Sequence record: NZ_CP009216.1 | DNA length: 48,288 nucleotides | Reading direction: 5' to 3' (one strand) | Source: a plasmid | Part shown: in pieces, positions 2,758 through 17,637 of the stretch | How positions within the stretch are numbered: the stretch's first letter is position 1 | Layout: each line of letters opens with the position of its first letter | Notes under the pieces: model-generated | The model's database searches: none | Told to the model about the DNA's origin: nothing | What the model saw: only the letters and a program-made list of their open reading frames with translations | Program-made: the position numbers and the translations under genes

Positions 2758-3789
2758 ATGACCATCACCACTAGGAAACCCACCGGGCAGACCTCATGGC
2801 CGTTTATCCTCCTCGCCGGCGTCGAGGGTGGAGGTAAAACTTGGGCCGCTGTCGAAGCAACCGGCATGGAATCGGTCGACAGGGCATTCTTCATCGAGCT
2901 TGGCGAGGGCATGGCCGATGAATACGGGCAGGTTCCGGGTGCTGACTTTGAAATCATCGAGCATGACGGCACCGTGGGGATGATTCGTGAGGCGATTGCG
3001 TGGGCGTCGGCGCACCCCGCTGCTGAAGGCAAGAACAACATGCTCATCTTCGATTCGCTCACCGAATTGTGGGAGCTGATCACGGAGAATGCGCAGGCCG
3101 AGGCAAACCGGCGCGCCACCCGCAAGGGGCGCAAGATTCCCGAGGGTGGCATTCGTATTGACATGGATCTGTGGAACCGGGCTGGCGACACCTGGGAGGG
3201 GGTGATGGGCCAGCTGCGTCGATTCCCGGGTGTGGTGATCGGCACCGCCCGCCTGGAGAAGGTCACGCTTATGGACGATGAGGGCAGGCCGACGAAGGAG
3301 AAGGACTGGAAGATTCAGGCGCAGAAGCGCTTGCCGTACCGGGTGCAGGTGATTGTGCAGGCCCGTCAACCCCGCACCTGGACAATGACGAAGATCGCTA
3401 CCACGGTTCCGGCGTTGCAGCTGCAGCCCGGGCAGGAGCGGACGTTCAACGACTTCTCCGTGGTGAAGCTTTTGGAGACGATGGGGGTGGGGGCGAATAC
3501 CGCGCCGGCGACGTTCCGCGAGGCGGTGCAGGACGATTCACTAGCCGATAATCCACAGCCGAAGCAGAAGCCGCAGCAGGAGGCGACGGCAGAGCAGCTG
3601 GCGGAGTTCGCTCGCAAGGCTACCGAGCAGTCCGACGAGGCGCTGAAGAAGGGGCTGGTGTACTACCAGCGCATGAAGGACACGCAGCGGGTGGAGATTG
3701 TGCAAGCGGAGATTAGCCACCGGGCGCAGCGCAACGTGCAAGACCAACTCGACGGGGAGGTGGTTGAGGGTGAGCTTGTCGAAGCCTAG
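2758..3789 (+). CDS. RecA-like NTPase (AAA_24 / Sak4-like recombination ATPase)
   Basis: Walker A ILLAGVEGGGKTWAA, a Walker B-like hydrophobic-D/E stretch, and an acidic C-terminus. The position is typical for phage recombination genes. Confidence 0.65.
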   Translation: MTITTRKPTGQTSWPFILLAGVEGGGKTWAAVEATGMESVDRAFFIELGEGMADEYGQVPGADFEIIEHDGTVGMIREAIAWASAHPAAEGKNNMLIFDSLTELWELITENAQAEANRRATRKGRKIPEGGIRIDMDLWNRAGDTWEGVMGQLRRFPGVVIGTARLEKVTLMDDEGRPTKEKDWKIQAQKRLPYRVQVIVQARQPRTWTMTKIATTVPALQLQPGQERTFNDFSVVKLLETMGVGANTAPATFREAVQDDSLADNPQPKQKPQQEATAEQLAEFARKATEQSDEALKKGLVYYQRMKDTQRVEIVQAEISHRAQRNVQDQLDGEVVEGELVEA

Positions 3790-3967
3790 CCTGCGCGCCC
3801 TTAGCTGGCGTGACCGCCAGGCGGTGCGGGTTATCGATTGGTGCATTACCCACTTGCCGTCGCGGGAGCTGTCCGAGGCCATTACGGAGGCGTTGAGCGC
3901 GGGGACAGTGCAGGTGCTCCTAAGGCACCTGCAGGAGTGGGAACGGCGCGCCAGGCCAAACACCTAG
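3770..3967 (+). CDS. hypothetical small protein (65 aa), GTG start overlapping the upstream stop
   Basis: In-frame GTG inside track ORF 3698..3967. The upstream part of that ORF overlaps the ATPase gene. Confidence 0.4.
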   Translation: MSLSKPSLRALSWRDRQAVRVIDWCITHLPSRELSEAITEALSAGTVQVLLRHLQEWERRARPNT

Positions 3968-3969
3968 AC

Positions 3970-3983
3970 GGGGCTGCAACCCC
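3970..3983 (+). promoter_or_regulatory. CTGCAA-loop hairpin copy 2 (GGGG-CTGCAA-CCCC)
   Basis: Followed by GGAGAAAGGA at 3997 and the ATG at 4019. Confidence 0.5.
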
Positions 3984-4018
3984 AATTTTGAAGCACGGAG
4001 AAAGGAAAAGCACGGACG

Positions 4019-4402
4019 ATGAAGCGTTCCTACATGAAGCGCAAACCCGCGAAGAACGGGCGGGTGCCGGAGGAAGTGTACGCGGCGGTGATGATGCGCA
4101 ACGGGGGCCGGTGTGAGGTCGGATTCCCCGGTGTCTGCACCGGGCGGGCGGAGGAGTTTCACCACCGCCAGTCGCGGGGGGCGTCGCGCAACCCGCACAC
4201 CATCGGGAATGGTTGCGCGGCGTGCCACGCCTGCCACGACTACCTGACGCACCGCTCCCCGCAGGCGGGGCGCGACGTGGGGGCCGTGGTGTCGCGCCAC
4301 TACACCGGCGACCCGGCGTATAAGCCGATGAAAGTACCGGGCCGGGGCTGGGTGTACCTCACCCCGGGCGGTGGCTACGAGAAAGCCGAGGGGGTGCAGT
4401 AA
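4019..4402 (+). CDS. HNH-family endonuclease
   Basis: Cys/His pattern CEVG..C...EFHHRQSRG..RNPH...NGCAACHACH, consistent with an HNH/zinc-ribbon nuclease. Confidence 0.6.
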   Translation: MKRSYMKRKPAKNGRVPEEVYAAVMMRNGGRCEVGFPGVCTGRAEEFHHRQSRGASRNPHTIGNGCAACHACHDYLTHRSPQAGRDVGAVVSRHYTGDPAYKPMKVPGRGWVYLTPGGGYEKAEGVQ

Positions 4403-4623
4403 TGAGGCAGGTAGGTATACCCGCTGACTTGTCGGCCATGCCCCCACGGGCGTTGAAGGTGTACGCGGTGCTGGCCGCGAATCGGTGGCCCCAAGGGTTG
4501 ACGGTGAATCAGGTATCGGGTCTGACCGGGTTGACGTGGCGCACGGTGGATACCGCGTTGGAGGAGCTACGCGCAGCCGGCTACCTGGACGAGCACAACC
4601 AGCCGGTGGGAGGTGCTGCGTAG
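4402..4623 (+). CDS. winged-HTH DNA-binding protein (73 aa)
   Basis: LTVNQVSGLTGLTWRTVDTALEELRAAGYL. It is paralogous in fold to the N-terminus of the next gene. TAATG start overlap. Confidence 0.55.
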   Translation: MRQVGIPADLSAMPPRALKVYAVLAANRWPQGLTVNQVSGLTGLTWRTVDTALEELRAAGYLDEHNQPVGGAA

Positions 4624-9774: not shown

Positions 9775-10620
9775 ATGGGTCAGTTTGTCATACCCGCAGG
9801 GGCAGAACAATCCCCCACCCCTTTTGACGTGTATCGCCAGGAGCGCGAGGACGGCTCCGAGTTTTGGAGCGCCCGCGACCTCGCCCAACTCATGGGCTAC
9901 CGCAAGTGGCAGAACTTCGAGAACGCACTGAACCGCGCCATTAAGGCAGCGCACAACCAAAAAATGGACGTTACCAGCCTTTTTATCCGATCTAGTAAAA
10001 AGACCGCGGGCCGTCCACAAGAGGACTACGAGTTAACCCGGTTCGCGGCGTACCTCGTCGCCATGAACGGCGACCCTAACAAGCCGGAAGTCGCGTCCGC
10101 GCAGGCATACTTCGCCACCCGCACCCGCCAGGCCGAAACGCAGCAACCCGCACAACTCACGGACGAGGAACTACTCTCCCGTGCCCTCATGGTGGCCAAC
10201 TCCAAGATGGAGCGCCTGGAGGCCGAGAAGGCCGAAGCGGTGGAACTCTCCGAGGCTGCAATGGCGCGTGCCCACGTCGCGGAAGCCGAAGCGGACGAGG
10301 CGCGCCCCAAGGCAGAGGCGTTCGACAGTTTCATGCGAACCGACGGCACCTACTACATGGGTGCAGTAGCGAAAATGCTGGGCATGGGGCAAAACGAGTT
10401 GTTCCGCAGGCTACGGAAGGAACGAGTGCTTATCCCGTCGGGGCACCTGTACAACACCCCGTACCGGCAGTATGAGCGCTACTTTCTGGTTCGTCCGCAC
10501 AAGTATGTTAACGCGGACGGGCGGGAGTTCTTGAAGCACACAACGTACGTGAAGCCGGCGGGGGTTGAGTTTATCCGACGACGGCTGGGGGTTGAGGCTC
10601 CGTTCGTTTCCGTGTCGTAG
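9775..10620 (+). CDS. phage antirepressor (Bro-N/DinD-like N-terminal domain + KilA-C C-terminal domain)
   Basis: N-terminal FWSARDLAQLMGYRKWQNFENALNRAIKAAHNQ (Bro-N/DinD signature). C-terminal MGAVAKMLGMGQNELFRRLRKERVL...NTPYRQYERYFLV (KilA-C). Confidence 0.7.
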   Translation: MGQFVIPAGAEQSPTPFDVYRQEREDGSEFWSARDLAQLMGYRKWQNFENALNRAIKAAHNQKMDVTSLFIRSSKKTAGRPQEDYELTRFAAYLVAMNGDPNKPEVASAQAYFATRTRQAETQQPAQLTDEELLSRALMVANSKMERLEAEKAEAVELSEAAMARAHVAEAEADEARPKAEAFDSFMRTDGTYYMGAVAKMLGMGQNELFRRLRKERVLIPSGHLYNTPYRQYERYFLVRPHKYVNADGREFLKHTTYVKPAGVEFIRRRLGVEAPFVSVS

Positions 10621-10771
10621 TTGGTTTCACGGAGAAGGGGAGTTTTGGGGTAGTGCTGCAACGCTATCCCCGGCCATGTAATTAGAACGTGTGTTCGTGT
10701 ACGTCGCAAATGTGTTCTACCATTGACGGCACCGAGCCGACCGCATAACCACCCGGAGCAGACTTCCTAAC

Positions 10772-10951
10772 ATGATTGAGACAACAGCCCTCACCCCGCC
10801 TGGTGCGCCCTGCAAAGTCACCAGGGCGCACGACCCGAAGGACACCTTCACCGCCTACGAAATAGAGGTCAACGGCCAAACCATCGAGCTAGAACCCTCC
10901 CACGTCGCGGAGCTCTCCCGCGTGCTCACCCTCATTGCGGGTGGGAACTGA
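10772..10951 (+). CDS. possible small protein (59 aa)
   Basis: ATG with a weak GGAG. It is below the track cutoff. The overlapping - strand ORF 10855..11943 is R/P-rich and spurious. Confidence 0.3.
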   Translation: MIETTALTPPGAPCKVTRAHDPKDTFTAYEIEVNGQTIELEPSHVAELSRVLTLIAGGN

Positions 10952-10984
10952 AACCGCTCGCAATACACACCCGATGGTGTTAGT

Positions 10985-11557
10985 GTGGCCGATGTGGAAG
11001 GCGCGAAATGCACATACCAAGACCGGGAGCTGTTTACCAACCCGGCTGGCCGTGACGCACCATCGACAGTGCGTGCGATACAGATTTGCGAAGAGTGCCC
11101 CATCATCAACCAGTGCGCGAAGCAGGCGCTGACAGCCGGCTCAAGTATCGACTTCAGCAACCAACACCCCGCGGTCGGTGTGATCCAGGCCGGGGTGTAC
11201 TGCGACGGCTCGCAGCGCGCAGCTATGGAGCTCGCGGCCCGGGCGGGGGAGCTTCCCCCTGCCGTCGAGGTGACGCCGCGGGCGAAGGCAGGGGACAGGT
11301 GCAAAAGCTGCGGCACGCCAATGGTGCGGTGGACGCGTGACCGTGTGCCGGACGGGTACGCAATGCACCGGGGGCGGGGGTTCTGCACGAACTGCCGTAA
11401 GGCGTACAACGAGGAGTTGGCTCGGGCCCGGGCTAATGGTGAGGTACGGGTGGGGCTGCGGAAGCAGGTTGACCGGAAGCGCCACTCGGCCCCGCCCCGC
11501 CGTGACCGCGAGGTGGTTATCCAGTTCTCGTTGTTTGAGCGGGAGGCGCTGGCGTGA
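10985..11557 (+). CDS. whiB: WhiB-like Fe-S transcription factor with an extra C-terminal zinc ribbon
   Basis: C-x22-ICEECPIINQCAKQAL (CxxC-x5-C) WhiB signature, and a C-terminal CKSCG...CTNC. Confidence 0.7.
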   Translation: MADVEGAKCTYQDRELFTNPAGRDAPSTVRAIQICEECPIINQCAKQALTAGSSIDFSNQHPAVGVIQAGVYCDGSQRAAMELAARAGELPPAVEVTPRAKAGDRCKSCGTPMVRWTRDRVPDGYAMHRGRGFCTNCRKAYNEELARARANGEVRVGLRKQVDRKRHSAPPRRDREVVIQFSLFEREALA

Positions 11558-11940
11558 CGCAGTGGGACTTGAAGTTGCCGTGGGTGAAGCCGCCGCTGTC
11601 GCTCAATGACCGCGAGCATTGGGCTCCTAGGGCGAAGAAGCAGAAGGCGGTGCGGGAGGCGTCGGCGCTGCTGGCTCGGCAGGCGGGTATCCCGCGGTTG
11701 GGGACGGCGAAGGTGCGGCTGGTGTGGTTGGTGGCTGACCGGCGTCGGCGTGACCGGGAGAACATCACTGCGACGCTGAAGCCTGCGATTGACGGGCTGG
11801 TGGACGCGGGTGTTGTTGAGGATGACTGCTGGTGGATTGTGACTGAATCGTCGTGTGCGATTTCGTTGGTAGAGAAGGGGTGTGAGGGGGTTTACCTGCA
11901 GGTTTTGGGTGAGCCGGAGGGCGTTTCGGTTTCCCTTTGA
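11554..11940 (+). CDS. rusA: RusA-like Holliday-junction resolvase
   Basis: RRDRENITATLKPAIDGLVDAGVVEDD matches the RusA D-x-D-N...K...D...DD pattern. GTGA overlap. Confidence 0.6.
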   Translation: MTQWDLKLPWVKPPLSLNDREHWAPRAKKQKAVREASALLARQAGIPRLGTAKVRLVWLVADRRRRDRENITATLKPAIDGLVDAGVVEDDCWWIVTESSCAISLVEKGCEGVYLQVLGEPEGVSVSL

Positions 11941-11988: not shown

Positions 11989-12002
11989 GGGGCTGCAACC
12001 CC
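11989..12002 (+). promoter_or_regulatory. CTGCAA-loop hairpin copy 7 (GGGG-CTGCAA-CCCC)
   Basis: Located 15 nt upstream of the ATG at 12017. Confidence 0.5.
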
Positions 12003-12016
12003 AGAAAGGACACAAG

Positions 12017-12211
12017 ATGGCCACCTACGCCACCACCGCCGACTACATCGAGCAGAACATCACCCCGGGCCTCGGAGATGTCGAGCTCACCAGCGAGCAA
12101 GCGCAGGAAGTCGCCCACCGCATGACCGAATGGAACGAGGACGGCCAGCTCGTGGAGCGCGAGGGCATGGACTTCTGGGACGTCGTAGCCGACGTCCGCG
12201 GCGACAACTAG
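12017..12211 (+). CDS. hypothetical acidic protein (64 aa)
   Basis: ORF track entry with an RBS. Confidence 0.6.
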   Translation: MATYATTADYIEQNITPGLGDVELTSEQAQEVAHRMTEWNEDGQLVEREGMDFWDVVADVRGDN

Positions 12212-12227
12212 CCCGACAAGGCAGGCA

Positions 12228-12262
12228 GGCGGGTTCAAGCCCCCGCCACGGGCACCAGGGCC
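12228..12262 (+). promoter_or_regulatory. intergenic GC hairpin element B (GGCGGG-ttcaagc-CCCGCC, then ACGGGCAC CAGGGCC)
   Basis: Closest paralog of elements A and C. Confidence 0.4.
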
Positions 12263-12287
12263 AACCGGCCCGCACAACCACATAGAC

Positions 12288-12301
12288 CGCGCTGCAACGC
12301 G
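12288..12301 (+). promoter_or_regulatory. CTGCAA-loop hairpin copy 8 (CGCG-CTGCAA-CGCG)
   Basis: Located 18 nt upstream of the ATG at 12319. Confidence 0.5.
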
Positions 12302-12318
12302 GAGAAAGGAACCCCGTC

Positions 12319-12504
12319 ATGTACCACGGGAACAACGAAGGCCTACGCGCCCTCGACATGGCAGAACAACGCCTCAAAGAAGCCCGCACCACCGCCACCC
12401 CAGCGGAACTGCCCGGCCTCAACCTCGCGCTGAACATCGTCCGCGACACCGCCGACGATGTGGCGCCCGCCCGCTCCCTCCACGACATCCTGCAGGGGGC
12501 CTAG
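12319..12504 (+). CDS. hypothetical protein (61 aa)
   Basis: ORF track entry with an RBS. Confidence 0.55.
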   Translation: MYHGNNEGLRALDMAEQRLKEARTTATPAELPGLNLALNIVRDTADDVAPARSLHDILQGA

Positions 12505-12506
12505 CC

Positions 12507-12677
12507 ATGACCAACCGCGCAATCATCTTCCTCATTATCGCGGCACTCGCTGCCCTGTCGGTGCCCGTAATCATGGCCGGCACCGGCGCAATCCTCCCGG
12601 TTGTTTACGCCCTCGCGGGCCTGCTGATTTACGAGCTGGCGACCGACCCCTACCGGAACGGAGACACCAATGAGTAA
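12507..12677 (+). CDS. small membrane protein (56 aa, 2 predicted TM)
   Basis: MTNRAIIFLIIAALAALSVPVIMAGTGAILPVVYALAGLLIY. It ends with the shared NGDTNE junction and is below the track cutoff. Confidence 0.4.
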   Translation: MTNRAIIFLIIAALAALSVPVIMAGTGAILPVVYALAGLLIYELATDPYRNGDTNE

Positions 12678-13200
12678 CGAAACCGCACGCCTAGCCCGTG
12701 AGTGGGCTGAATCCCGCAACCCGAACAGCCTGACGGGTGCCGCTAAGGCTGCTCGCGAGCACATCATGGCCACCACAGACCCACTGACGATGGCGGACGT
12801 GGAGTGGAACGACGAGAAGCACTACCTGGCCGGGGCTGTAGACGCTGATGGGCACGAGGTGGTCATGCTGGATAAATTGCATGGAAATATCCGTGTTTGC
12901 GACGTAGACCAGATGGGCCTGGGTCGCCCGGTGCTGGAATCCCCGAAGACCATCACCCCGAACGGGAAGCGGTACGAACTGCGCGAGGTAGGGGCGCCGG
13001 AAGAACCGACCCACCCGGAAACGCTGGTGACCGAGCAGGACTACGCGAACGCGCCCGCCGGAACCGTAGTCGCGGAATCCCATTACTTTGCATGGCAAAA
13101 GAACCAATTCGGAGCCTGGCGCAAGGTTAAAACCCGGCTTACCGACCGCGAGATGGCAGGCACGGAGCGGCAGGTGCTGCGCTGGGGGTGGGGCAAGTGA
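12670..13200 (+). CDS. hypothetical protein (176 aa)
   Basis: ORF track entry. ATG embedded in the junction cassette. Confidence 0.6.
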   Translation: MSNETARLAREWAESRNPNSLTGAAKAAREHIMATTDPLTMADVEWNDEKHYLAGAVDADGHEVVMLDKLHGNIRVCDVDQMGLGRPVLESPKTITPNGKRYELREVGAPEEPTHPETLVTEQDYANAPAGTVVAESHYFAWQKNQFGAWRKVKTRLTDREMAGTERQVLRWGWGK

Positions 13201-13529
13201 CCACCAACATCACCCCGGACAAGGCCCGCGAGCTACTCAACACGGCACGCCAAGAAGCGGGGGACGGGCAACGCCCCGTGACCGTGGCCGCGAAGTACGC
13301 CCCGCTGGTAGAAGCCACCCCCGCACTCGCGGAACTAGTCGCCAGCATGCACTACGAGTACGCGGTGCAGACAGGCATCGACGACAACGGTGATTACAGA
13401 CACATGTACGACTGGCGACCGACCCACGACGAAGCCGCTGAAATGGTGGCCCTACTCAAGTGCATGAACCCGGACATTAAAACCCGCATTGTCCGCCGCT
13501 TGGTGGGGGAGCCGGAGGTAGTCGAATGA
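13188..13529 (+). CDS. hypothetical protein (113 aa; alternative GTG start at 13197)
   Basis: ORF track entry. Confidence 0.55.
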   Translation: MGQVTTNITPDKARELLNTARQEAGDGQRPVTVAAKYAPLVEATPALAELVASMHYEYAVQTGIDDNGDYRHMYDWRPTHDEAAEMVALLKCMNPDIKTRIVRRLVGEPEVVE

Positions 13530-13876
13530 GCCGCTGGGAAGTGAAGCAGCACATCTACAGCAGGAAGTGGCTGGCCTACCCGAGGGACTACCACTCACTG
13601 CGACCGCAGACGGTGGTGGACGCGAGCGTGCCGTGTGTCCGCATGTTCCACCACCACGCCGAAGCCGTCGCCTACGCCGACCGCATGGCCCGCACCCGCG
13701 AAGTCGTGCTGCCCAGGAACCACGACCTAAAGAAGTCGGTACATAAAGACATTAACGGGGATTTGTACGCCAACTACAGCAGCGCCAACTACTGGGCGCA
13801 AGACAACTGGAACAAAGGCCCAAAACCCCTCGCACTCGCGCTACTCGCCCTCGCAGAACAGGAGGAACACACATGA
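13526..13876 (+). CDS. hypothetical protein (116 aa)
   Basis: ORF track entry. ATGA overlap. Confidence 0.6.
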   Translation: MSRWEVKQHIYSRKWLAYPRDYHSLRPQTVVDASVPCVRMFHHHAEAVAYADRMARTREVVLPRNHDLKKSVHKDINGDLYANYSSANYWAQDNWNKGPKPLALALLALAEQEEHT

Positions 13877-14073
13877 GCAGCACCTACGGCCCGTGGCAGC
13901 GGTGGTTCGCGTGGCGCCCCGTGGAAACCCGCAACCACGGCTGGCGCTGGCTCCGTGTGGTTGAACGCCGCCGCCACTACCCCGACCCCATGCTCCCGCC
14001 ACTAATCGGCGCGCAACCCGGCTGGGAATACCAACCAACCCCCAACAACCGACACGAAACCGAGGAAGCATGA
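13873..14073 (+). CDS. hypothetical Trp/Arg-rich protein (66 aa)
   Basis: ORF track entry, translationally coupled. Confidence 0.5.
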   Translation: MSSTYGPWQRWFAWRPVETRNHGWRWLRVVERRRHYPDPMLPPLIGAQPGWEYQPTPNNRHETEEA

Positions 14074-14312
14074 CCACATTCATTCGACTGTGTGGAGGGG
14101 AAACCGGCGTGGGCACCACCCGTGACGAGTGCCCCCACCGGCTGCATGACTTCCCGCTCCCCGACGGCTATGGGGACGCGGCGGAGGAAGCGGCACGCAG
14201 GATCGGCCACCGCTGGCAAAACGTCCGCTGCCCAGACTGCGGCACCTACGGCTGGAATCCGGGGACAAGCCGCTACAAACTCACACCCACCAAGACGGAG
14301 GAACACGAATGA
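14070..14312 (+). CDS. hypothetical zinc-ribbon protein (80 aa)
   Basis: C8, ECPH and CPDC Cys pairs. Confidence 0.5.
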   Translation: MTTFIRLCGGETGVGTTRDECPHRLHDFPLPDGYGDAAEEAARRIGHRWQNVRCPDCGTYGWNPGTSRYKLTPTKTEEHE

Positions 14313-14596
14313 GCACGTATCTGTACTTGCGGTGCGAATCGCACAACCCGCCAATCGAAAACGACGATGAATCCGGCCAACACCTACACGACCTAGAGCA
14401 AATCTGGGCCGACCTCGACAACCGCGACCGGATCGCCGCCGCCTGGCGCGACGGCATGATCCCCGAAGATTACTTCCGTCTCCACACGGCCCGGTTCCTC
14501 GTCGCGCACCCACACTGCAAAATCGGGGTCGTAGACGAATACGGACGCACCCACCACCCAGACGGCACCACACGAGACGAGGGGGAACAAGCATGA
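14309..14596 (+). CDS. hypothetical protein (95 aa)
   Basis: ORF track entry. Confidence 0.5.
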   Translation: MSTYLYLRCESHNPPIENDDESGQHLHDLEQIWADLDNRDRIAAAWRDGMIPEDYFRLHTARFLVAHPHCKIGVVDEYGRTHHPDGTTRDEGEQA

Positions 14597-14841
14597 GCAT
14601 TGATTACGACCGGCTACGGGAGCTGGTGGGGGAGATGGAGCAGGGTGTGGCGGCGACTACCCGCTACATCTGGATCGACCTCGCCCGCGAACTACTGCGC
14701 TTGCGGGACGGGGTGAAGCAGGTTGCCGATGACCTCGGAGAAAAAGCGGAATACGCCCCCAATGTCCCCCGGCGGGAAGCCTACCTCGAAGCAGAGCAGC
14801 GTCTCACCGACCTACTGAACGGAGACACCAATGAGCATTGA
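14593..14841 (+). CDS. hypothetical protein (82 aa), tandem paralog 1
   Basis: N-terminal 40 aa almost identical to the next ORF (MSIDYDRLRELV.EMEQG.AATTRY). Confidence 0.6.
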   Translation: MSIDYDRLRELVGEMEQGVAATTRYIWIDLARELLRLRDGVKQVADDLGEKAEYAPNVPRREAYLEAEQRLTDLLNGDTNEH

Positions 14842-15091
14842 TTACGACCGTTTGCGGGAGCTAGTCGCGGAGATGGAGCAGGGCGCAGCCGCCACCACCC
14901 GCTACACATGGCTAGACCTCGCACACGAACTGATCCGCCTGCGCGACGGAATCGAAGCGCAGCGCGACACGTGCACCAGCGCCGCGGCAATGTGCCGGGA
15001 CTTCAACAGCCCGGACGCGCCAGCCGTCGCAAGCAACCTCGAATCCGTAGCCCGCGCACTCACCGGCCTACTGAACGGAGACACCGAATGA
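14831..15091 (+). CDS. hypothetical protein (86 aa), tandem paralog 2
   Basis: See paralog 1. The C-terminal LLNGDT(N)E end is conserved. Confidence 0.6.
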   Translation: MSIDYDRLRELVAEMEQGAAATTRYTWLDLAHELIRLRDGIEAQRDTCTSAAAMCRDFNSPDAPAVASNLESVARALTGLLNGDTE

Positions 15092-15444
15092 GCACTATCG
15101 ACCGCGCAGCCGACGTAATCCGCGCCCACGGGTTCGACCCCTGCCGAGAACCGGAATGTATCGCGCAAGACCTCGCAGACGCGGGCCTACTCGCGCCAGA
15201 CCTACCGACCCTGAAATCCGACTACGCCAGCATAGAAGTGCCGGTACGCAGCACCATCATCAACATGCACGACGATCCCGAGCGCTACGACGATGACAGC
15301 ATCCTCGTCGGCACCTGGTTCGGGGAAGTGGAGTTCTCTCTCGGCAAATTCGACGAGGTGTCGGTCTACATGAGCATTGAACAGGCCCGCGACTTCGCCC
15401 ACGCCTTGCTTGGGTCCGCCGACTACTCGGAGGCGAACCAATGA
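15088..15444 (+). CDS. hypothetical protein (118 aa)
   Basis: ATG within the junction cassette. In-frame part of track ORF 14908..15444. Confidence 0.55.
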   Translation: MSTIDRAADVIRAHGFDPCREPECIAQDLADAGLLAPDLPTLKSDYASIEVPVRSTIINMHDDPERYDDDSILVGTWFGEVEFSLGKFDEVSVYMSIEQARDFAHALLGSADYSEANQ

Positions 15445-15602
15445 TGGAGCTCAAGGAAATCAAGGTTGAACGCGAGGGTGGCTACGTGTGCGTCGCGTGG
15501 GACGGCGGACGGCTACGGCTAACCCCCACCACGGCAGCGGAAATGGCACGGCAAATGCGGGTCGCCGCAGTGGAGATCGCTAGCGAGGTGACCCGTGAGT
15601 GA
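15441..15602 (+). CDS. possible small protein (53 aa)
   Basis: ATGA overlap, fills a gap; below the track cutoff. Confidence 0.35.
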   Translation: MMELKEIKVEREGGYVCVAWDGGRLRLTPTTAAEMARQMRVAAVEIASEVTRE

Positions 15603-15822
15603 CCCTGTGAACCACCCGCAGCATTACACCGGGTTCAGCAACGGTGCGGAGGTCATCGATATTGCGGAGAACCTCACGTTTAACTGCGGCAATGCGGCTA
15701 AGTATTTGGCCCGCGCCGGAAGCGTCGACGGACGGGTGAAGGGCGACGTGCTGCAAGACCTGGAGAAGGCCCGCTGGTACATCAACCGCGAAATCAACCG
15801 ACTGAAGGAGAACAACCAATGA
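15595..15822 (+). CDS. DUF3310-like phage protein (75 aa)
   Basis: NHPQHYTG...EVIDI...NAAKYLARAG...KARWYINREI resembles DUF3310 family signatures. Confidence 0.5.
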   Translation: MSDPVNHPQHYTGFSNGAEVIDIAENLTFNCGNAAKYLARAGSVDGRVKGDVLQDLEKARWYINREINRLKENNQ

Positions 15823-16516
15823 CCAGAATCGCCGAACCCGGCGTGACCCTCATTGCCCACACCACTGTCACCACACTGGACGGAACGCTGGATACAGCCC
15901 CCCACGCCGCCGAGTGGCTTGAACCCCAACAGGGCACCGCCCACGCGGAGTACATAACCGAGTTCGCTGGCAGGGCTTGTTACCAGAGCTTCAACCGCCC
16001 GAACCCGGCCACGGCCACCACCGCCGATTACCTACGCCGCACACTGTTCGAGCAGAAGCACTGGAGCATTGCGGAGCACGCCACCGCCACGTTCTACATC
16101 ACCGGCGTGTCCCGCGCCTTCACCCACGAGTTAATCCGCCACCGCCACCTGTCGTACAGCCAACTCTCCCAGCGCTTCGTAGACGAGGGCCGCGCCGACA
16201 TTGTGGTGCCGCCCGCCATGCGCGGCGAGGAGGACGTACTGCTCGAACTCGAGCGCGAAACCTCCCACTACTACAGCACCATCGTGGACGTGCTCACGGA
16301 CGACGGCTTGCCCCGCAAGCAGGTCCGCGAAGCCGCCCGCGCCGCGCTCCCGAACATGACCGAAACGCGGATTGTGGTCACCGGCAACTTGCGCGCATGG
16401 CACGAAGTAATCGAGCGCCGCACCGCCCCGGACGCGGACGCGGAAATGCAAGAGGTCATGGGCATGGTGCGCGACCAGCTCACGACCATTGCACCGACCA
16501 TCTTCCCGGAGGAGAA

Positions 16517-16520: not shown

Positions 16521-17636
<1,116 letters not shown>

Positions 17637-17637
<1 letters not shown>

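Follow-up and report, generated by a model that had tools for sequence, protein, structure and literature searches.

A short cassette recurs at the junctions between early genes

The 48,288-nt stretch of sequence record NZ_CP009216.1 that we analysed (the window, numbered from its first letter) is a temperate Corynebacterium phage (prophage), in whose early region a short sequence, here called the cassette, stands at three boundaries between small genes. We think it rather probable that the cassette is a translational-coupling signal fused to the 3′ end of a hyper-mosaic, Ead/Ea22-like gene family, and that, together with the conserved 5′ and central blocks of the same family, it supplies the homology through which genes are exchanged and stacked. 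The relatives with which the window was compared are exclusively contigs of public genome and metagenome assemblies (L001-L007 and L018-L033).

The 13-mer GAACGGAGACACC is present in the window in three exact copies on the + strand (12656, 14817 and 15073) and is absent from every one of 100 dinucleotide-preserving shuffles, on which ground we rejected a chance origin of the repeat; once two mismatches are allowed, the count is uninformative (4 matches versus 1.75 expected). In full, the three copies read ..GGAACGGAGACACCAATGAG (12655-12674), CTGAACGGAGACACCAATGAGC (14815-14836) and CTGAACGGAGACACCGAATGAGC (15071-15093), and the copies at 12656 and 14817 agree over the whole 19-mer GAACGGAGACACCAATGAG. 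The first-pass annotation, made from the letters of the sequence, had placed three copies at three gene boundaries and had read each of them as upstream C-terminus, ribosome-binding site and downstream start at once; both the positions and the triple coding are borne out. The upstream open reading frames (ORFs) end on the cassette with ..YRNGDTNE-stop (12656), ..LLNGDTNEH-stop (14817) and ..LLNGDTE-stop (15073); in all three copies a GGAG begins 10-11 nt before the ATGAG start, inside the upstream coding region; and stop and start overlap by 8 nt at 12670-12677, by 11 nt at 14831-14841 and as ATGA at 15088-15091 (Table 1). The junction at 14817 is one G shorter than the family norm (ACCAATGAG rather than ACCGAATGAG), and therefore the upstream family gene (copy A) ends in ..NEH-stop within the downstream one (copy B), with the 11-nt overlap. 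This one-G-shorter variant is in the minority in the family and is also found in L033, P0043, P0057 and P0103.

The two family genes appear to be different alleles in tandem

Copies A and B are indeed paralogues, as first annotated: BLASTP aligns them at 58% amino acid identity (E 2e-30), and at the DNA level identity is 81% at the 5′ end (119 nt) and 96% at the 3′ end (27 nt), with a middle that cannot be aligned. Adjacent and co-oriented as they are, and given that other early families also contain tandem pairs, one could explain them by plain local tandem duplication, B having arisen from A in place and diverged since, in which case the junction would be a duplicated gene end. The origins of the parts argue otherwise. 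Over the first 120 nt the two copies are 80% identical to each other, whereas A is 88% identical to a gene of L025 and B is 91% identical to a gene of L033. The C modules, unalignable between A and B, each recur elsewhere at 77-86% nucleotide identity with other partners: that of copy A with at least three other N modules (P0093, P0099 and P0106), that of copy B with at least six other N modules (P0005, P0015, P0020, P0023, P0024 and P0034). The positions of modules in the array differ as well: L033 has the layout of the window (an MSTWLYL gene, two family genes and a gene whose product begins MSNIDRAAEV), and in its second family member the N part is B-like and the C module A-like. Because the N parts are closer to genes of other phages than to each other and the C modules recur with other partners, we read the pair as a tandem array of two different alleles, with no recent duplication. 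The earlier view of a duplicate pair diverging in place is thus not upheld, and tandem duplication as the whole story, which we consider very unlikely, is largely refuted.

The family is a mosaic of interchangeable modules

A search with copy B returned 113 homologous proteins, so that the family has at least that many members. Three blocks are conserved, namely an MSIDYDRLREL start, an (LAPDM)ARELLRLRDG middle and an LT.LLNGDTE end, and between them lie two variable segments that occur in many unrelated versions. Clustering at 50% identity sorts the N and the C modules into 21 types each, which are paired in 53 ways, and all four N/C combinations are present in 38 two-by-two sub-tables; repeated recombination between gene halves is therefore required. 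Inside the gene, modules are swapped at the central ARELLRLRDG block. At the level of whole genes, arrays of 2-4 tandem family members are found in L003, L005, L022, L032 and L033. Among individual members, P0042 has a copy-B-like N half followed, after the central block, by an unrelated Cys-rich C-terminal part without LLNGDTE, and P0012 and P0017, both from very short contigs, are near-identical to copy B and truncated or frameshifted.

In build, the family resembles the Ea22 proteins of lambdoid phages, which are mosaic, with a common N-terminal segment and a central coiled coil (PMC10834534). Like Ead/Ea22 (PF13935), it is encoded in the early region of a temperate phage, and its proteins share an N-terminal segment, are helical in the centre and have C-terminal parts that can be exchanged. 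The long N modules contain an (A)TPGPW-type segment that matches PF13935, as is the case for 13 of the 23 such proteins, all below threshold: the best E among the long forms is 5.6e-4, and P0030, with 17.5 bits, falls short of the cut-off (27). Weak PF27050 matches are also listed for family proteins in the source database. Unlike Ead/Ea22, copies A and B lack the segment and have no Pfam or PHROGs match, and the proteins are much shorter (80-135 residues). A PDB sequence search returned only noise. In the AlphaFold model of one long form (P0066, pLDDT 77), a short helix at the N terminus and a small sheet of low confidence accompany a confidently predicted helical hairpin; the model gave no significant structural match in PDB or BFVD. 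The family may thus be described as distantly Ead/Ea22-like in build and as a putative member at most. Some members of a second mosaic early family (MTPEQA..) carry the ATPGPW segment too.

The cassette appears to be conserved as an initiation signal

Across 11 family genes from nine loci, the 3′ block reads CTCACCGRCCTACTGAACGGAGACACCGAATGA, near-unchanged whatever C module stands before it, and the 5′ block is near-invariant. Where the amino acid is the same, the codon is also the same in 0.81 of cases in the 3′ block and in 0.8-1.0 at codons 2-7 of the 5′ block, compared with 0.56 in the central block. What is kept could in principle be the peptide, with ..LLNGDTE acting as a functional C-terminal motif (for partner binding or as a stability tag) and the DNA repeat being secondary: 49 of 114 family members end exactly in LLNGDTE, the preceding LT.LL lies within a confidently predicted helix, and the membrane protein upstream of the 12656 copy retains its DPYRNGDTNE tail in all homologues (D/G at one site). 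However, synonymous sites are conserved too, variation falls on residues whose replacement leaves GGA-GA intact (N by E, K, D or Q; T by A, N, S or Y), and the same DNA recurs in a different frame and in places that no upstream gene covers. In L022 and L023, GGAGACACCGAATGAGCATTGA ends a non-family gene in another frame (..EQEETPNEH-stop). The Zn-ribbon gene of the window ends TKTEEHE-stop on GGAGGAACACGAATGAGC; its L003 orthologue reads GGAGACACGCCATGAGC and ends QDGDTP-stop, owing to an indel in the ribosome-binding region (14297 junction). The 8-nt core of the cassette, GGAGACAC, is present in six copies in the window, of which three belong to the full cassettes, two precede late genes (25788 and 29825) with no upstream gene tail and one lies on the other strand, before a minus-strand gene. 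Two HNH endonuclease genes of relatives, moreover, carry it in codons past their profile match (see below). Since relatives read the core in other frames and the core occurs outside any upstream gene, it is conserved as DNA rather than as peptide, and we regard a peptide function as the origin of the repeat as most improbable.

The core is also a favoured ribosome-binding site with its spacer: among 305 distinct start contexts from ten loci, it is the commonest GGAG-containing 8-mer (19 times). The second commonest, GGAGGTGG (15 times), is the junction of another tandem mosaic family (..RRLV.EPEVVE-stop, then MTPEQA..). From 12670 to approximately 16690, fifteen genes in a row have a start that overlaps the stop before it; the overlap is a 4-nt ATGA/GTGA in 11 cases and 8 or 11 nt long in the others. 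Judged from this layout, the early genes would form one tightly packed, translationally coupled unit. We detected no promoter-like or terminator-like site on the + strand in 12000-16000, and on this ground a promoter/terminator cassette was rejected; so was RNA structure at the junctions, with fold z values of -2.0, +0.85 and -0.47, none of them significant.

In mechanistic terms, the cassette is the family 3′ block, CTCACCGRCCTACTGAACGGAGACACC(G)AATGAG, fused to what would be a translational-coupling signal: GGAG, followed by a spacer rich in A and C, stands 10-11 nt ahead of the next ATG, which itself overlaps the stop (ATGA). By this layout the next gene would be set up for translation by ribosomes finishing the previous one, and the ..GDT(N)E peptide is largely a by-product of the cassette DNA.

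Related usages are seen around the cassette. Seven of the eight consecutive genes starting at 12670-15088 have Met-Ser starts (ATGAG(C/T)), and in the related loci ATGAGC and ATGAGT together make up 47 of the 305 start contexts, a preference that goes beyond the ATGA overlap. The second mosaic early family (MTPEQA.. / ..YEYAVQ.. / ..RRLV.EPEVVE-stop) has its own recurrent junction, GGAGGTGGTCGAATGACCCCG, and likewise occurs in tandem pairs. Finally, on L013, a 1.2-kb contig filed under a Thermoplasmatota metagenome-assembled genome, three copies of GGAGACACCCAATGA precede three consecutive ORFs, one of the copies being apparently intergenic; the contig resembles a high-G+C phage fragment, and its binning is doubtful.

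The junction joins different genes in relatives

If the cassette is a boundary at which genes are exchanged, it should be found flanking different cargo in related phages. This was looked for and found, so the junction is not unique to this phage. In relatives, no fewer than eight kinds of gene precede the cassette and no fewer than ten kinds follow it. The upstream partners include family genes, the membrane-protein gene, a 67-residue gene, HNH endonuclease genes, the Zn-ribbon gene, the MSTWLYL gene and a 172-residue gene; the downstream partners include genes whose products begin MSIDYD (the family), MSTIDRAADV, MSNREKSAEV, MSEPKRYRK, MSDTPVIRIT, MSTWLYLRCESH, MSNE.. and MSEPVYDYY, as well as an NrdF chimera.

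The ends of high-identity blocks tell a similar story. In an all-against-all comparison of 13 loci, counting distinct block ends, 43-48% of the ends lie within 20 nt of a called start as compared to approximately 10% expected, an about 4-fold excess that none of 1000 randomisations reached, and the ends peak at -20 to +9 relative to the start. Individual pairs of near-identical relatives diverge at the junction itself. L022 and L023 are 100% identical for 6.5 kb from the ATGAGCAC start codon, with different genes upstream; L003 and L005 are 98% identical over 1,014 nt from GACGGAGACAC, preceded in one of them by a Zn-ribbon gene and in the other by an HNH gene; and L022 and L032 are 98% identical over 189 nt up to GGAGACACCGAATGA, after which different genes follow. 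In L007, an extra gene stands between a full cassette and a copy with two mismatches. The 5′, central and 3′ blocks of the family also surface as isolated 36-54-nt matches (83-93% identity) between otherwise dissimilar genes, and a 292-nt block of the window (14915-15206), 90% identical to both L003 and L005, has as its edges the central block and a point within the next gene.

How might such patterns arise? The cassette offers 20-35 nt of near-identical DNA, or approximately 60 nt when the 5′ block of the family comes next, and it is available at many junctions, both within one phage and across co-infecting relatives. Near-identical DNA at many junctions would therefore let the cassette serve as a crossover point for homologous or microhomology-guided recombination, with phage annealing proteins (ERF, YqaJ-type or AAA_24) or replication slippage as candidate agents. 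Such crossovers would bring whole genes in or out with a working junction, and through them arrays would grow, shrink or come to hold different alleles side by side; within the gene, the central block would play this part.

The main alternative has no recombination role for the cassette: genes are joined illegitimately, only working junctions survive, and the resemblance reflects selection plus convergence on the signal that all overlapping gene pairs require (GGAG, an unstructured A/C-rich spacer and ATGA). This would fit with the observation that most early junctions in the group share the same grammar with other spacers (GGAGGAACAC, GGAGAACC and GGAGGTGG), and that the core also stands before unrelated late genes. 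Unrelated elements, too, use the same string before starts: L013 is one, and the two exact cassette matches in IMG/VR (L008 and L009) are unrelated elements that have it at a junction. Furthermore, a scan of 185,579 GTDB species genomes for the cassette motif returned eight loci in unrelated taxa, by our estimate about the number expected by chance; of these, L013 alone is of interest. On the other hand, the identity exceeds what the signal needs, including as it does CTCACCGRCCTACTGAAC upstream and ATGAGCATTGATTACGAC downstream; the tails of HNH genes carry CTACTAGA(C/T)GGAGACAC; at recent block ends the cassette is common to both partners; and, without any spacer between the genes, precise random joints should be very rare. 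Taking the two sides together, we judge convergence and selection alone to be an unlikely account.

Several points nonetheless weigh against exchange at the cassette. All of the evidence is comparative, and it is by comparison that recombination at the cassette is inferred. Block edges at starts are also what selection after random joining would produce, because the genes overlap and only precise joints survive. With 13-35 nt, the blocks come close to the shortest lengths at which homologous recombination is efficient. The window has just three copies, two of which follow from its two family members, and the counts of contexts and of block ends are inflated because related loci share ancestry. 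The copy at 15073 lies inside the 14915-15206 block and not at its edge, and a 95.9% block shared by the window and L005 stops at the ATGAGCA of copy A, beside a different junction type. Finally, among the homologues found there is no sign of exchange between the junction at 12656 and the family. The first-pass proposal of a conserved boundary sequence that mediates the shuffling of small early genes therefore stands in part: the sequence is reused, it flanks different cargo, and blocks of 98-100% identity end on it; that it causes the recombination, and does not simply outlast it, is our reading of these patterns, and it is only one of three conserved blocks, with in-gene swaps falling at the central one.

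The copy at 12656 deserves separate treatment. It joins the gene for a 56-residue membrane protein to a gene whose product begins MSNE and which, in relatives, has conserved ends and a variable middle. Six homologues of the membrane protein (77-100% identical) all keep DPYRNG(D/G)TNE and all have an MSNE-family gene next, and a seventh (L023) has DPYREGDTNE. The same junction precedes the MSNE gene in L018, L020, L021 and L025; where another gene stands upstream, L025 keeps the cassette and L003, L005 and L007 have the variant GAAGGAGAACCCTATGAGTAA. As MSNE-gene junctions occur with different upstream genes, the 12656 cassette travels with the start of the MSNE gene. The 19-nt identity between 12656 and 14817 rests on the copy A variant ACCAATGAG together with the stable membrane-protein tail, and so points to the same type of cassette and not to a recent transfer. 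Recent gene conversion between the two sites was rejected, the minority variant being present in other phages as well and the tail being stable across homologues. By this comparison, the 12656 copy is the same kind of initiation cassette, serving a separate and stable gene pair.

Some of the relatives have unusual gene structures at or near these junctions. In L018, a 271-residue ribonucleotide-reductase small-subunit ORF (13028-13843; PF00268) begins MSIDYDQLRTELDRFENGDELR: the family 5′ block and the stub of an N module precede NrdF in a single fused frame, whereas in the window NrdF (16642-17637, 331 residues) is unfused. Also in L018, a 269-residue MSNE-family protein (10164-10973) contains the segment HPxTLTTxxDYxNAPxGTIV twice, by internal duplication, and in L033 a 276-residue ORF (358-1188) is an MSNE-family N part joined in frame to the ..APALAELVAGMHYKYAVQ..RRLMSAPEVV family. 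In L005, the orthologue of window 14309-14596 is a 205-residue ORF (3847-4464) formed by fusion of two genes, since a 2-nt loss (GAACAAG--TGAGCA versus GAACAAGCATGAGCA in the window) abolishes the stop/start overlap. HNH endonuclease genes stand directly upstream of family members in L005 (4461-4805) and L022 (4684-5025); the HNH profile match stops short of the last 7-8 codons of the two genes (..FLLDGDT(E/P)-stop), which reproduce the family tail. It is possible that HNH nucleases are linked to exchange at the junction.

Comparison with known systems

Three known systems come closest to the cassette, none of which fits fully. In T4-type phages, PeSL cassettes consist of an intergenic promoter and a stem-loop terminator (Arbiol et al. 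2010, PMC2839356; Comeau et al. 2014, PMC4122927). As with PeSL, short conserved expression signals are repeated between early genes that are small and non-essential, the copies mark the limits of the insertions, deletions and replacements by which close relatives differ (here L022/L023, L003/L005 and L022/L032), and recombination between copies is proposed to drive modular shuffling. Unlike PeSL, the cassette is a ribosome-binding site with a stop/start overlap within coding DNA, lacking a promoter, a terminator or a stable hairpin.

In lambdoid phages, short conserved sequences flank exchanged modules and relaxed homologous recombination is at work (PMC2327257; PMC3945230); phage recombinases act on short, diverged homology (PMC3945230, PMC2327257). 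The resemblance lies in the conserved stretches at module edges, which are found in a subset of related temperate phages and bound high-identity patches, and in the presence of phage-encoded recombination functions. The differences are the actinobacterial host, the fact that the borders are overlapping-gene junctions that encode protein tails, and the additional blocks inside one gene family.

The start-associated sequence (SAS) of Cluster K mycobacteriophages is an asymmetric motif of approximately 13 bp, present in 11-19 copies per genome in the non-structural half (Pope et al. 2011, PMC3203893). Like SAS, the cassette is asymmetric and oriented one way, contains GGAG, lies a few bases before the ATG of different gene families and sometimes includes the upstream stop. 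Unlike SAS, it has another sequence, far fewer copies and no extended inverted repeats, most of its copies are the 3′ end of one family, and two copies of its core precede late genes, with one on the other strand. The SAS motif itself was rejected: its consensus, GGGATAGGAGCCC, has no match with up to two mismatches. By analogy with the proposal made for SAS, the cassette could be the binding site of a phage or host factor that regulates translation of early genes. The position just before starts, the single orientation and the conserved bases unable to pair with 16S rRNA resemble SAS in this respect (PMC3203893), yet there are three full and about six core copies per genome as compared to 11-19, the SAS motif and associated inverted repeats are missing, and family membership explains most of the copies. 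We give a factor-binding site next to no credence.

A description of this family or of this junction was not found in the literature searched.

Genomic context of the locus

The assignment of the window to a temperate Corynebacterium phage follows from two proteins of Corynebacterium ureicelerivorans that are 100% identical to its own: P0037 to copy A and P0114 to the 56-residue membrane protein. The G+C content is 62-68%, and nearly all genes are on the + strand. An integrase is encoded at the left end; the window also encodes a WhiB-like protein, ThyX, NrdF, a dUTPase, a portal protein with approximately 32% identity to the portals of Streptomyces and Gordonia phages, and a 2,395-residue ORF of the size expected for a tape measure. 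As for recombination functions, an SSB gene adds to the two genes listed in Table 1, and relatives have genes for ERF, YqaJ and PDDEXK.

Searches elsewhere for relatives came back empty. Near and distant DNA searches with 12300-15600, and tblastn with copy A, gave no matches in 50,697 phage records; no relatives of the family were found in IMG/VR; and a profile scan of GTDB species genomes yielded nothing that was confirmed.

Table 1. Coordinates of the genes, conserved blocks and junctions discussed in the text (window positions unless a contig is named).
Feature	Position	Strand	Remarks
AAA_24-domain protein	2758-3789		Domain match; recombination context
RusA-like Holliday-junction resolvase	11554..11940	+	PHROG 34, E 2e-20; recombination context
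Small membrane-protein gene, 56 aa	12507..12677	+	Tail ..TDPYRNGDTNE-stop carries cassette copy 1
Cassette copy 1, GAACGGAGACACCAATGAG	12656..12674	+	GGAG 12660, ATG 12670, upstream stop TAA 12675-12677
Gene after copy 1, 176 aa, MSNE..RWGWGK	12670..13200	+	PHROG 25349, E 1e-6
Second mosaic family members	13197-13529; L022 2921-3585; L023 3411-4066; L025 2708-3252; L028 4622-5244
Related junction type GGAGGAACAC..ATGAGCA	13861..13879, 14297-14315; weaker 14581-14599	+	Repeat family D3
Family copy A, 82 aa	14593..14841	+	N module VGEMEQGVAATTRY, C module VKQVADDLGEKAEY.., tail LLNGDTNEH-stop
5′ conserved block ATGAGCATTGATTACGACCGGCTACGG	Copy A 14593..14619; copy B 14831-14857	+
Central conserved block ARELLRLRDG	Copy A 14683..14712; copy B 14921-14950	+
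Copy A 3′ conserved block	14803..14841	+	Includes cassette copy 2, 14815-14836: GGAG 14821, ATG 14831, stop TGA 14839-14841
Family copy B, 86 aa	14831..15091	+	N module VAEMEQGAAATTRY, C module IEAQRDTCTSAAAMCRDF.., tail LLNGDTE-stop
Copy B 3′ conserved block	15059..15093	+	Includes cassette copy 3, 15071-15093: GGAG 15077, ATGA stop/start overlap 15088-15091
Gene after copy 3, 118 aa, MSTIDRAADVIRAHG..	15088..15444	+	First ~40 codons common to L003, L005, L007 and L033; rest differs

Implications for phage mosaicism

Taken as a whole, the locus appears to be a case of junction-mediated phage mosaicism, a phenomenon already known in kind, with the particularity that the junction here would be both coding and translation-coupled. 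It also carries a caution for annotation: in packed phage operons, what looks like a short C-terminal ‘motif’ (..NGDTE, for example) can reflect the ribosome-binding site of the next gene instead of a feature of the protein.

Whether phage mosaics form by random joining followed by selection or by recombination at short conserved sequences is a long-running question, and the locus is an unusually clean natural test system for it. The junction is a defined stretch of 20-60 nt in which a translation signal coincides with a candidate site of crossover; the gene family is small, its three blocks are fixed and its interchangeable modules number in the dozens; and there are near-identical relatives that diverge exactly at the junction. 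A bolder proposal, which we put forward tentatively and hold to be doubtful, is that the 3′ block, the ribosome-binding site with its ATGA and the 5′ block of the next gene together (approximately 60 nt) make up a portable recombination site and that the family is an expandable array of interchangeable gene cassettes, with exchange driven by phage annealing proteins and possibly by HNH endonucleases. If true, PeSL-bounded ORFans or integron cassettes would have a counterpart here that lies in coding sequence and is coupled to translation, and the exchange would provide combinatorial diversity (more than 50 module pairings are seen) in a protein under diversifying pressure, for instance in conflict between phage and host or between phages.

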